The notes under the pieces: model-generated
The model's input: only the letters and a program-made list of their open reading frames with translations
Databases searched by the model: none
Told to the model about the DNA's origin: nothing
Origin: a virus
Lineage: Duplodnaviria; Heunggongvirae; Uroviricota; Caudoviricetes
Reading direction: 5' to 3' (one strand)
Virus record (IMG/VR): IMGVR_UViG_2839594473_000019
DNA length: 25,797 nucleotides
Shown here: one piece after another, positions 14,698 to 16,509 of the stretch
How the letters are laid out: each line of letters opens with the position of its first letter
Position numbering within the stretch: the stretch's first letter is position 1
Position numbers and translations under genes: made by a program

Positions 14698-15322
14698 CAA
14701 TTTTTTTACGTTCAGAAAAATAAAGGTAACCGGATTCAATAAATTAGATGCTATAATTGAATTTGGTTCTAAATTGACTATTTTATATGGTGGTTCTGAC
14801 TCTGGAAAAACATACATATATTATTTGATTCGATATTTATTAGGGAGTGAAAAACTAAAAAATAAAGATATCGATCATGCTCAAGGTTATGATTTAGCCT
14901 ATCTGGAATTTAATTTTCAAGGTAGGGTAATGACAATTGAGAGGTCTCTTCAGGATAGCGCCCATTACAGATTATATGATTCGAGCATTGAAAATGTTAG
15001 TGAAGCTAATCTGTTGATGGTTTTTTCCAAAAGTGCTTCGTCTAAAAAGAGTTTTTCATCATACTTTTATGGTAGGTTGAATTTCAAAGAGGCTAAAGTA
15101 AGAACAAACTTAAGTAATACTCTTCATAAATTTAATCTTAATAATGTTTTTGAATTTTTTTGTATTGATGAATTAAGAGTGTTAACTGAGAAGTCGTTAA
15201 TTCTTTCTGATATTCCTAGCGAGGAGACAAAAAGAAAGTCTGAATTTAAATTCCTTTTAACTCAGAGAGATGATACTAACTCCTTAGCAGAAAAACCAAA
15301 TAAAAAAGCAAGATATTTTTAA
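14690..15322 (+). CDS. Cargo ORF-D: N-terminal head of an SMC/Rad50/RecF-like ABC ATPase (Walker A), ending at an in-frame TAA
   Basis: FRKIKVTGFNKLDAIIEFGSKLTILYGGSDSGKTYIYYL has the RecF/SbcC-type N-terminal layout with Walker A GGSDSGKT (14789-14812); ATG at 14690 overlaps the ORF-C stop. Confidence 0.6.
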   Translation: MNDNFFTFRKIKVTGFNKLDAIIEFGSKLTILYGGSDSGKTYIYYLIRYLLGSEKLKNKDIDHAQGYDLAYLEFNFQGRVMTIERSLQDSAHYRLYDSSIENVSEANLLMVFSKSASSKKSFSSYFYGRLNFKEAKVRTNLSNTLHKFNLNNVFEFFCIDELRVLTEKSLILSDIPSEETKRKSEFKFLLTQRDDTNSLAEKPNKKARYF

Positions 15323-15943
15323 AAAAATCAAATTGCAAATATTTATGAGGAATTGAAAGCGCAATTAATTTATCCTGAATATGATCAAGTCATTGTTTCA
15401 AGAGAACTTGAGAAAGTAGAGCAAGATATTGAATCATCGAAAGATATATTGAAAGGTATTGTTGATGCACTTGATGATAAGAAGCAATTATTAAAAGAGT
15501 TAAGTGATGAATTATATTCAATCAGTGACAGGGAAAAATACTTATCATTACTCATTGAAAGATTTAGTCTTCTTAAAGACCAATACTTTATAGATCTACA
15601 AAGAATAGATGTTGTATCACAGGCGAATTTCTATTTAAATAATTTTGCAGATATTTATTGTGAGTTCTGTAATACACCGCAAAAAAAAGAAAATGAAATA
15701 TCATATGATGATTGTTTTTTGTCGTGTAATGCAGAAAAATTGAAAATCAAAAGCCAGCTGAAAGGATTAATTGAATCAATCGGATCTAATGTTCGCGAAC
15801 ATGAATTAATTATGTTAAGAAAAAATGATGTTAATGAAATTTATCAATCAGAAAAAAGTGATTTTAAGACGTTAGAAGATAAAAATATAAAACAATACAT
15901 TCATCTCTTGAATCACTTTATGAATATAAAGACAATCTTTTAA
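15323..15943 (+). CDS. Cargo ORF-E: predicted coiled-coil segment with a Cys4 cluster, same frame as ORF-D and lacking a credible own start
   Basis: Heptad-rich sequence with C-x2-C…C-x3-C (15659-15727); the frame is open directly from the ORF-D stop codon; the first start codon is a TTG at 15353 only 2 nt after a GAGG. Confidence 0.5.
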   Translation, partial: KNQIANIYEELKAQLIYPEYDQVIVSRELEKVEQDIESSKDILKGIVDALDDKKQLLKELSDELYSISDREKYLSLLIERFSLLKDQYFIDLQRIDVVSQANFYLNNFADIYCEFCNTPQKKENEISYDDCFLSCNAEKLKIKSQLKGLIESIGSNVREHELIMLRKNDVNEIYQSEKSDFKTLEDKNIKQYIHLLNHFMNIKTIF

Positions 15944-16509
15944 TGGATCACACAAAACATAGCATTCTATCTTCATTACAAGATAAAGAAGATGATGTTG
16001 ACGAACTTAAATACTCCGCCGAGGACTTTGACTCCTTAACAGTAGCTGATTTGTATGATATAGAAATAGCGATGCAAGACTTTTTGAATGATATAAATTT
16101 TGAAAATTCTAAAGATAACAAAGTGCGATTTGACGAAGATACATATGACTTTAATATCAATGGGAAACGCCGAGGAATGTTTGGTAAAGGTACCCGTGCA
16201 GTAATGCATGCTATATTTACCATTTGCTTTGCGGAATTTTTATCAAGAAAAGGGAATCCATTCATTGGATTTGTTGTGCTTGATAGTCCATTAGTGACGC
16301 ACTTTGATAAAGATAGAGGGGGTTCTCTATCGGATGTTAATAGCGTCAGTCTCAGTGATTCATTTTATCACGCATTAATCAAAAGGGACTATAATTTCCA
16401 GATTGTAATTCTTGAGAATAAAGGTCCGACGTTCCAAATAAAAATTAATGATGCAAATAAAATCCATAACTTAAATAAGAATGGAAGCTCTGGTTTTTAT
16501 CCTGTTTAA
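15943..16509 (+). CDS. Cargo ORF-F: C-terminal head of an SMC/Rad50/RecF-like ABC ATPase (signature-like motif plus Walker B)
   Basis: GMFGKGTRAVMHAIFTICFAEFL (signature-like, 16174-16203 onward) followed by GFVVLDSPLVTHFD (Walker B-like, 16261-16290) parallels the RecF/SbcC C-terminal lobe; ATG overlaps the ORF-E stop in the -1 frame. Confidence 0.6.
   Translation: MDHTKHSILSSLQDKEDDVDELKYSAEDFDSLTVADLYDIEIAMQDFLNDINFENSKDNKVRFDEDTYDFNINGKRRGMFGKGTRAVMHAIFTICFAEFLSRKGNPFIGFVVLDSPLVTHFDKDRGGSLSDVNSVSLSDSFYHALIKRDYNFQIVILENKGPTFQIKINDANKIHNLNKNGSSGFYPV

Follow-up and report, generated by a model that had tools for sequence, protein, structure and literature searches.

ORF-D, ORF-E and ORF-F of a P4-like satellite prophage in Escherichia coli O157:H7 very probably derive from a single lmuB gene of a decayed type II Lamassu system

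Introduction

Three consecutive open reading frames of a P4-like satellite prophage in E. coli O157:H7, here called ORF-D, ORF-E and ORF-F, together resemble an SMC-like ATPase, raising the question whether they encode an enzyme made of several polypeptides or are what is left of a gene that was once continuous. RefSeq presents them as three ordinary protein-coding genes, an 'AAA family ATPase' and two 'hypothetical proteins', without a pseudogene flag. An initial annotation of the 25,797-nt stretch of DNA analyzed here (the window) had proposed that the ATPase was recently inactivated, phase-variable or mis-assembled, and had considered a genuinely split ATPase as the less likely option. Comparison with intact homologues and with complete E. 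coli genomes suggests, with a probability of roughly 93%, that the three ORFs are the remains of a single lmuB of a dead type II Lamassu system in progressive pseudogene decay.

Results

The satellite prophage and its cargo operon

RefSeq annotation was read from the identical EDL933 sequence. The operon containing the three ORFs is carried in the int-psu cargo slot of the satellite, which has the following features:

11840-11885, plus strand: 3' 46 nt of tRNA-Thr, forming an incomplete att copy immediately 5' of the satellite integrase (aligned locally with the complete tRNA-Thr of 493/89)
12048-13229, plus strand: tyrosine integrase of the P4-like satellite (RefSeq, EDL933; the longest ORF begins at 11997)
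13233-16509, plus strand: predicted lmuA-lmuC-lmuB operon of type II Lamassu (ABC-3C), from Pfam and PADLOC matches
16536-16569, plus strand: terminator-like hairpin 3' of the operon, with a stem of 13 bp and then a T-rich tail (consensus scan)
16919-18497, minus strand: P4-like delta/ogr, psu and sid, the other boundary of the cargo hotspot (RefSeq, EDL933)

ARAGORN detected no complete tRNA in the window, and a C4 RNA was located at 19909-19996 by Rfam. The operon, which with a GC content of 26-34% is AT-rich compared to the satellite backbone, is flanked by the integrase and psu, and the element carries the P4 core set (delta, psu, sid, alpha primase, CI/C4 RNA). Its position between the integrase and cos/delta/psu/sid is that of the defense cargo in the int-psu hotspot of P4-like satellites (Rousset et al. 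2022, PMC9122126; PMC13586616). A satellite of Pantoea alhagi has the same gene order (int-lmuA-lmuC-lmuB-delta-psu-sid-...-primase), with an integrase at the same position that carries Pfam integrase domains, Pfam matches to Ogr_Delta and Psu, and an intact lmuB (606 aa) in the same context. The inactive system of O157:H7 strain FRIK944 (Rousset et al., PMC9122126) was considered as a description of the present locus and rejected, as it is a cytidine deaminase on another P4-like element.

Three fragments of one gene

Alignments with profiles and intact homologues identify fragments D, E and F as consecutive pieces of one lmuB gene:

14690-16509, plus strand: predicted lmuB pseudogene over its full original extent, 606 codons when restored (end-to-end alignment with intact homologues of 605-609 aa)
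14690-15322, plus strand: fragment D, encoding the N-terminal half of the ATPase head, including the Walker A motif GGSDSGKT and K40 (positions 3-199 of the PADLOC LmuB profile PDLC03863, E = 1.3e-49)
15353-15943, plus strand: fragment E, encoding the ascending coiled coil, the zinc-hook loop with its CxxC motif (C324, C327) and a portion of the descending coil (positions 231-412, E = 1.6e-21)
15943-16509, plus strand: fragment F, encoding the last part of the descending coil and the C-terminal half of the head (positions 428-608, E = 5.1e-37)

The three fragments tile the 610-position LmuB profile without overlap, so the pattern is not due to chance. ORF-D, which starts at ATG 14690 or TTG 14663, additionally matched Pfam AAA_23 and SMC_N, fragment E ends in a tail of 19 out-of-frame codons past 15885, and fragment F contains a conserved G-K-G-x-R motif and Walker B (VVLDSP). 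NCBIfam returned 0 matches for all six ORFs. Intact single-chain LmuB proteins of 605-609 aa, colinear with the fragments, were found in Proteus, Pantoea, Salmonella, Klebsiella and others, covering at least nine genera. The restored LmuB showed end-to-end amino-acid identities of 88% and 75% to the homologues P0001 and P0002, respectively, and P0001 matched PDLC03863 with E = 3.4e-117. Both GGSDSGKT and VVLDSP are conserved, and 29 homologues invariably have C324 and C327. A 'distant' blastn search detected no diverged lmuB copy in other complete E. coli genomes, so that the intact comparators were drawn from other genera. By these comparisons, the restored gene qualifies as lmuB, which no intact ORF in the window does, and the intact homologues bear out the initial proposal of an SMC-like ATPase that was originally encoded by one gene of some 600 codons and is now inactivated.

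The AF2 model of the 88%-identical intact LmuB (pLDDT 86.4) places helices at 233-318 and 339-439 and, between them, a loop (319-338). Its best Foldseek matches were the solved LmuB chains 9uxh_F, 9hqx_B, 9hqu_A and 9nyg_B, with E-values down to 4e-15, and Rad50 followed as a second tier. Sequence searches of the PDB with phmmer (intact LmuB and LmuA) and with an LmuB alignment profile yielded no LmuB or LmuA match and only weak matches to SMC/Rad50 N-termini; therefore, the link to the solved LmuB chains required fold comparison.

Lesions in lmuA and lmuB

The neighboring genes and the sites at which the operon is interrupted are:

13233-14239, plus strand: predicted lmuA pseudogene, Lamassu effector, split into ORFs 13233-13649 and 13622-14239, which tile PADLOC LmuA PDLC03852 at 10-140 and 141-333
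13639-13646, plus strand: lmuA frameshift site, one base lost at the C/A7 junction, A7 being 13640-13646 (DNA alignment with intact Proteus and Pantoea)
14239-14697, plus strand: lmuC, encoding ABC-3C middle component 2 and uninterrupted in the window (Pfam MC2 PF20288, E = 5.4e-30, above the gathering score)
15320-15322, plus strand: nonsense TAA at lmuB codon 211, ancestral TTA (Leu), with T to A at 15321 compared to LSU61, 493/89, O55:H7, Proteus and Pantoea
15881-15885, plus strand: E/F frameshift site, A5 versus A6 in the intact Proteus gene, codons 398-399 Lys-Lys (DNA and protein alignments)

The C-terminal domain of LmuA belongs to CTD6 (Pfam PF20282, E = 7.7e-30). Its N-terminal domain had no Pfam match and contains a PD-(D/E)xK-like motif (D47...Q66-x-K68), suggesting a putative nuclease. 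Intact LmuA orthologues of 335 aa are present in L008 and L010. The product of lmuC, which lies between the effector and ATPase genes as is typical of a Lamassu middle component, matched PADLOC LmuC PDLC03871 with E = 2.9e-36.

Compared to intact Proteus and Pantoea operons, the 3279-nt operon carries two one-base deletions, with no other length difference, and one nonsense substitution; one of the deletions and the nonsense change lie within lmuB. Hence two of the three components are not intact relative to their orthologues, lmuA being frameshifted and lmuB carrying both a nonsense codon and a frameshift. Direct reading of the sequence confirmed that ORF-D and ORF-E share a frame that one TAA interrupts, where T5 (15316-15320) meets A7 (15321-15327), and that ORF-F lies in the -1 frame with its ATG inside the TAATG overlap at 15941-15945. 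The third disruption seen in the cargo operon is the split of lmuA by the one-base loss beside A7. With the F frame open from 15883 onward, any extra base in 15883-15940, an interval that takes in part of the A5 run, would fuse E and F, and the A5 run and a downstream T4 run had both been named as possible sites. The alignment with the intact Proteus gene supports the A5 run, whereas the T4 run was rejected as lesion site, since intact Pantoea lmuB has the very same run; this run is real but occupies 15938-15941, not 15937-15940.

With three translatable ORFs, D, E and F might assemble into a functional split enzyme, or a full-length protein might be made by readthrough of the TAA and a -1 shift at U-AAA-AAU. 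Separate N- and C-terminal halves of SMC/Rad50 (ABC) heads can associate non-covalently, and heads can be reconstituted from them in vitro. The TAATG overlap could couple translation of F to that of E, and a -1 slip on AAA at 15881-15883 would give exactly the ancestral Lys-Lys. However, the orthologues are single uninterrupted ORFs and none has the same three-ORF split, in line with the initial ranking of this option. TTG 15353 is the sole possible start of ORF-E and, as had been noted, is poorly placed, with GAGGA abutting the start codon (0-2 nt spacing). No Shine-Dalgarno match was found upstream of the ORF-F ATG, which is a pre-existing internal Met (codon 419) that is internal in P0001 and P0002 as well. 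Residues 211-221 and 399-418 are in no fragment, such that about 30 coiled-coil residues would be missing from a split enzyme. The heptamer U-AAA-AAU does not fit the X-XXY-YYZ pattern, and Rfam reported no RNA element there, although it found the ALIL frameshift pseudoknot of an IS3 element in the same window (1286-1402). In addition, with its effector lmuA frameshifted the system would lack an output, and many lineages tolerate further disabling mutations (see below). A split or recoded enzyme is thus very unlikely. The start codons of E and F instead appear fortuitous, and the fragments are presumably without function: the motifs for ATP binding (K40), zinc hook and head engagement each reside on a different fragment, and all three classes are reported to be essential in a related LmuB (bioRxiv 10.1101/2025.03.14.643221).

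Distribution and decay in E. coli

Of 5426 complete E. coli genomes, 309 carry the locus at an identity of at least 99%. All 309 records have A5 at 15881-15885 and none has A6, and the one-base loss in lmuA is common to the five E. coli lineages compared (5/5). The TTA allele occurs in exactly 10 complete genomes, which are basal (O55:H7, 493/89, LSU61), as counted with a 241-nt query; a 90-nt query matched nothing, LSU61 included, presumably due to low-complexity masking. From this distribution, the frameshifts between E and F and within lmuA both predate the split of O55:H7 and O157:H7, while the TAA is younger than both, since it is absent from O55:H7, 493/89 and LSU61. The term 'recently inactivated' is therefore appropriate with respect to inactivation but holds for its timing in a relative sense only.

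Several other runs vary in length. The A6 run at 15852-15857 is A5 in O55:H7 and A7 in LSU61, the A8 run at 15681-15688 is A7 in 66 of the 309 records, including TW14359 and EC4115, and the T7 run at 14701-14707 is T6 in seven of the 309. Other lesions of the locus in E. coli are IS1203 insertions, a large deletion and a 670-bp deletion that has taken out fragment D. A nonsense codon in lmuC was seen in O55:H7 DEC5A only; the survival of lmuC in nearly all lineages might be due to residual selection or just to its small size (456 nt). The combination of A7 in LSU61 (+1) with the shared A5 (-1) was considered as frame restoration and rejected, because the 30-nt interval in the F frame contains a TGA at 15859-15861.

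Every break lies at or beside homopolymers, which are error-prone on several sequencing platforms, so that miscalls or mis-assembly might have produced false breaks in an intact gene. This explanation has virtually no probability in view of the identical sequence in about 300 complete, independently finished genomes from many laboratories, platforms and years. Moreover, the in-frame A6 was absent from all 309 records, the TAA is a base substitution and involves no length error, and variant alleles track lineages, with TTA confined to O55:H7, 493/89 and LSU61 and A7 at 15681-15688 shared by 66 records.

The same frameshifts at A/T runs, the two independent hits of the A6 run at 15852-15857 and the variation of 14701-14707 and 15681-15688 among strains would also be expected of a contingency locus, in which slippage in A runs toggles the ATPase on and off. 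But the tracts are short (5-8 nt), the ON allele at 15881-15885 was found in 0/309 records, and each of the length changes seen adds a lesion while none restores the frame. Switching on would further need reversion of both the separate lmuA frameshift and the TAA, a T to A substitution that slippage cannot reverse. Phase variation is extremely unlikely on these grounds, and the substitutions at the locus likewise look neutral. Between genera, dN/dS was 0.06-0.12, whereas within the clone 11 non-synonymous or nonsense changes faced 2 synonymous ones, a dN/dS of roughly 1.36 (P = 4.8e-5 under omega = 0.1) that is based on 13 substitutions in five representative genomes only. The within-clone substitutions are compatible with neutrality and relaxed selection.

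Discussion

Sequence comparison classifies the three ORFs and their neighbors as a type II Lamassu system of a CTD6/MC2 subfamily. With characterized type II ('short') Lamassu or ABC-3C systems, namely DdmABC of Vibrio cholerae and LmuACB of Salmonella enterica (PDB 9hqu, 9hqx, 9uxh, 9nyg), the locus shares the order lmuA-lmuC-lmuB and an LmuB of about 600 aa that combines Walker A GxxxxGKT (K40) with a deviant Walker B (hhhhD-S), a coiled coil and a CxxC hook. An effector with a C-terminal oligomerization/sequestration domain is likewise common to both (PMC12663957; bioRxiv 10.1101/2025.03.14.643221). In contrast to the characterized systems, which combine Cap4-CTD7 with MC3, the present one has a CTD6 effector tail and an MC2 middle component, the solved LmuB chains share only about 14% identity with it, and lmuA and lmuB are broken, forming a pseudogene array. 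Our literature searches found no experimental test of a member of the CTD6/MC2 subfamily. Rad50/SbcC (structural matches 7zr1, 9bi4 and 3qf7) has the same fold class, in which an antiparallel coiled coil bearing a zinc hook interrupts the ABC head, and Lamassu has been reported to be SbcCD-derived (PMC12663957). Unlike in Rad50/SbcC, the coiled coil of the present LmuB is far shorter, and the gene has no Mre11/SbcD partner but is paired with lmuA and lmuC in a mobile-element defense hotspot.

The comparisons show that a one-base slippage deletion from A6 to A5 at 15881-15885 broke lmuB before the divergence of O55:H7 and O157:H7. The one-base loss at 13639/40 broke lmuA, also before this divergence. 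Later, the T to A change at 15321 (TTA to TAA) added a stop in the lineage toward typical O157:H7, and independent further lesions then accumulated in other branches. According to the literature on related Lamassu systems, LmuA, the effector, is kept monomeric and inactive by an LmuB dimer together with LmuC; once this complex has detected an invader by its DNA ends or replication intermediates, LmuA is set free and tetramerizes to an active nuclease, and the infection is aborted. The early knock-out of lmuA and lmuB may not have been neutral but favored by selection, as a way to disarm a self-toxic Lamassu responding to DNA ends or palindromes, although we regard this as unlikely. If true, the knock-out could have allowed the clone to carry its large plasmid and unusually many lambdoid prophages, and the dead cargo would have been kept because the satellite hotspot was no longer exchanged.

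In P4 hotspots, recognizable defense pseudogenes are rare (<1% of P4 pseudogenes), and defense systems are usually swapped before they decay (PMC13586616). In contrast, the decayed system described here was kept throughout the O55:H7/O157:H7 radiation and provides a clear case of a defense system decaying in place, which is rare according to this recent survey. The current view of how Lamassu works is not changed by our findings. Our literature searches found no description of a Lamassu remnant in O157:H7. 'Lamassu' was reported by defense-system finders in O157:H7 collections (PMC12050774), and if these hits correspond to the present locus, counting it as a working defense overstates the immune repertoire of O157:H7. 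The ordered lesions additionally provide a few markers of lineage: all lineages have A5 and the frameshift in lmuA, the TAA marks typical O157:H7, and A7 at 15681-15688 marks the 66 genomes that include TW14359 and EC4115.

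Identity and lesions of the operon

The window is 100% identical to E. coli O157:H7 chromosomes (e.g. EDL933 near 313 kb), and our data support an ordinary process of stepwise pseudogene decay in the Lamassu operon that it carries. The in-frame TAA, the -1 frame change and the TAATG overlap described in the initial annotation are all present in lmuB, which is broken into three ORFs:

14690-15322, ORF-D, starting with ATG, same frame as ORF-E
15353-15943, ORF-E, starting with TTG, same frame as ORF-D
15943-16509, ORF-F, -1 frame, start inside TAATG (15941-15945)

Pfam identified ORF-D as the N-terminal half of an SMC/Rad50-type ATPase and detected CTD6 in 13622-14239 and MC2 in 14239-14697, which marks the two genes upstream of ORF-D as components of an ABC-three-component system. 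PADLOC assigned the names Lamassu LmuA, LmuC and LmuB to the parts. Its LmuB profile PDLC03863 (610 positions) was tiled by ORF-D (3-199), ORF-E (231-412) and ORF-F (428-608), and the LmuA profile likewise by two small upstream ORFs, 13233-13649 (10-140) and 13622-14239 (141-333). One system goes by the two names type II Lamassu and ABC-3C (bioRxiv 10.1101/2025.06.23.660979), and the locus is a now-defunct member of this family. Its subfamily is CTD6/MC2, for which our literature search found no experimental studies, whereas the characterised Lamassu systems are Cap4-CTD7/MC3. The N-terminal part of LmuA, which had no Pfam match, contains a putative PD-(D/E)xK-like motif (D47...Q66-x-K68).

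Alignment of the operon (3279 nt) at the nucleotide level with the intact Proteus and Pantoea operons revealed only two length differences. Loss of one base at 13639/40, adjoining the A7 run 13640-13646, splits the 335-codon lmuA into ORFs of 138 and 205 codons. The second difference lies at codons 398-399 of lmuB, where the window reads GAT-AAAAA-TAT (run at 15881-15885) and Proteus has AAAAAA, encoding Lys-Lys; the loss of this one A parts ORF-E from ORF-F. The frame of ORF-F is open from 15883, and therefore one added base within 15883-15940 would fuse ORF-E and ORF-F. The A5 run was thus rightly suspected as the site of this lesion, but not the T4 run, which is the same in the intact Pantoea gene; the latter run exists, although at 15938-15941, a trivial slip and the sole coordinate error of the initial annotation. 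The break between ORF-D and ORF-E is a lone TAA (15320-15322) where a T5 run meets an A7 run, and it arose by a T to A substitution at 15321 that converted TTA, encoding a Leu211 conserved in all homologues, to TAA.

Intact relatives and possible function of the fragments

When D, E and F were joined conceptually and used as a protein query, single-chain LmuB homologues of 605-609 aa were found, with which the three fragments align in order and end to end. Identity was 88% for Proteus mirabilis, 75% for Pantoea alhagi and 43-47% for Salmonella, Klebsiella, Serratia, Citrobacter, Yersinia and Aeromonas; further homologues came from metagenomes. The Pantoea operon resides in a satellite of the same kind and layout, int-lmuA(335 aa)-lmuC(152 aa)-lmuB(606 aa)-delta-psu-sid-...-primase. 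In the AlphaFold model of Proteus LmuB (mean pLDDT 86.4), the N-terminal head half is predicted to be followed by helices 205-224 and 233-318, a loop (319-338) in which C324 and C327 are invariant, a return helix (339-439) and the C-terminal head half. Its top structural matches in the PDB were the solved LmuB chains 9uxh_F, 9hqx_B, 9hqu_A and 9nyg_B, followed by Rad50.

That LmuB works as three pieces, already regarded as the less likely alternative in the initial annotation, or is recoded, is very unlikely. No orthologue has this split, and residues 211-221 and 399-418, about 30 residues of the coiled coil, are encoded on no fragment. Start signals are poor: TTG is the sole candidate for ORF-E, with GAGGA immediately against it, and the ATG of ORF-F, for which no Shine-Dalgarno complementarity was found, is the methionine of codon 419, already present inside the intact gene. 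Moreover, the effector gene lmuA is broken too, and the locus tolerates additional disabling mutations. Defence by a related Salmonella system depends on each of three elements, ATP binding by K40, the zinc hook and a head-engagement motif (bioRxiv 10.1101/2025.03.14.643221), whereas the matching regions lie on three separate fragments in O157:H7. In other Lamassu subfamilies, LmuA is sequestered by the LmuB dimer and LmuC until sensing of DNA ends frees it to form a tetramer, the active nuclease (PMC12663957); by analogy, an intact O157:H7-type system would sequester LmuA and release it as a nuclease tetramer upon DNA-end sensing.

Two LmuB homologues, from Salmonella (P0028, partial) and Serratia fonticola (P0029, 440 aa), lack approximately the first 170 residues and may represent copies in other genera that decayed independently or were mis-started. 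Different pipelines called lmuA 145 or 201 aa instead of 335 aa in compared loci (L007 vs L008, L009 vs L010) whose DNA is identical or near-identical within each pair. This is an annotation difference and no frameshift, because the full ORF begins with GTG.

Decay in the E. coli population

Of the 5426 complete E. coli genomes searched, 309 carry the locus, with at least 99% identity in every copy, and no diverged copy was found elsewhere among these genomes. The lmuA and A5 frameshifts were common to every lineage in an alignment of representatives and are therefore older than the divergence of O55:H7 and O157:H7. Exactly ten genomes retain the ancestral TTA (LSU61, strain 493/89 of O157 and eight strains of the O55:H7 type) and the rest have TAA; the alignment shows that this stop was acquired afterwards, on the branch leading to typical O157:H7. 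Further changes affect individual lineages or genomes:

15852-57, A6 run to A5, O55:H7
15852-57, A6 run to A7, LSU61
15681-88, A8 run to A7, 66/309 records, including TW14359 and EC4115
14701-07, T7 run to T6, 7/309 records
lmuC, nonsense codon, DEC5A
lmuB remnant, IS1203 insertion, three O157:H7 genomes
lmuB, reduced to its last ~17%, one genome (strain F3113)
~14653-15322, 670-bp deletion joining lmuC to fragment E, one Logan assembly (P0027)

The records with the IS1203 insertion or the F3113 loss are NZ_CP089270.1, NZ_CP089034.1, NZ_CP089032.1 and NZ_CP038374.1 (hits H1-H3, H70). The 344-aa product of P0027 has lmuC in frame with fragment E, fragment D thus having been lost by a deletion that lies between two near-identical repeats, AAAAAAT(A/C)AAATTG..CAAATAT.

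Mis-assembly as the source of the breaks, proposed in the initial annotation, is excluded by identical sequence in hundreds of independent finished genomes, by variant alleles that track lineages and by the one lesion that is a substitution. Another of its proposals, phase variation of lmuB, is excluded in practice: a query with the repaired A6 run had no perfect match among the 309 records carrying the site and one gap in each, the tracts involved are short, and switching back would require reversal of three separate lesions. The six independent one-base indels are all located within or next to homopolymers of at least 5 bases, which make up 7.8% of the operon, and this points to replication slippage. 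Between genera, dN/dS of the three genes was 0.06-0.12. Comparison of five representative genomes within the E. coli clone gave 11 non-synonymous or nonsense against 2 synonymous substitutions (ratio ~1.4), a pattern with P=4.8e-5 under between-genus constraint; the sample is small, but the substitutions fit neutrality and their direction agrees with lesion accumulation.

Genomic setting

The AT-rich cargo operon (26-34% GC) is carried by a P4-like satellite prophage, where it has the integrase on one side and delta/psu/sid on the other, a position known as a P4 defence hotspot (PMC9122126). Recognisable defence pseudogenes are seldom seen in P4 hotspots according to a 2026 survey (PMC13586616), and the O157:H7 remnant is one of the few retained. 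We found no publications on it in our literature search, and RefSeq lists the pieces as normal genes. The decay is real yet ordinary and will not surprise specialists.

In the immunity region of the satellite, Rfam detected isrK (19763-19840, 71.9 bits) and C4 antisense RNA (19909-19996, 84 bits), which overlap the annotated Icd-like ORF region. Of tRNA-Thr, the window has just the 3'-terminal 46 nt (11840-11885), located upstream of the satellite integrase. The basal lineages 493/89 and DEC5A have the complete tRNA-Thr at this position, and therefore its 5' part has been replaced in typical O157:H7 by other DNA (up to 11839) that contains an IS fragment and a gene of the AraC family, possibly from a second island at the same tRNA-Thr. 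An IS3-family element (IS629/IS1203-like) at 1005-2218 has overlapping orfA and orfB and an ALIL pseudoknot (1286-1402; Rfam, 121.5 bits), and in contrast to the lmuB break in the same window, its orfA/orfB junction is a genuine programmed -1 frameshift.
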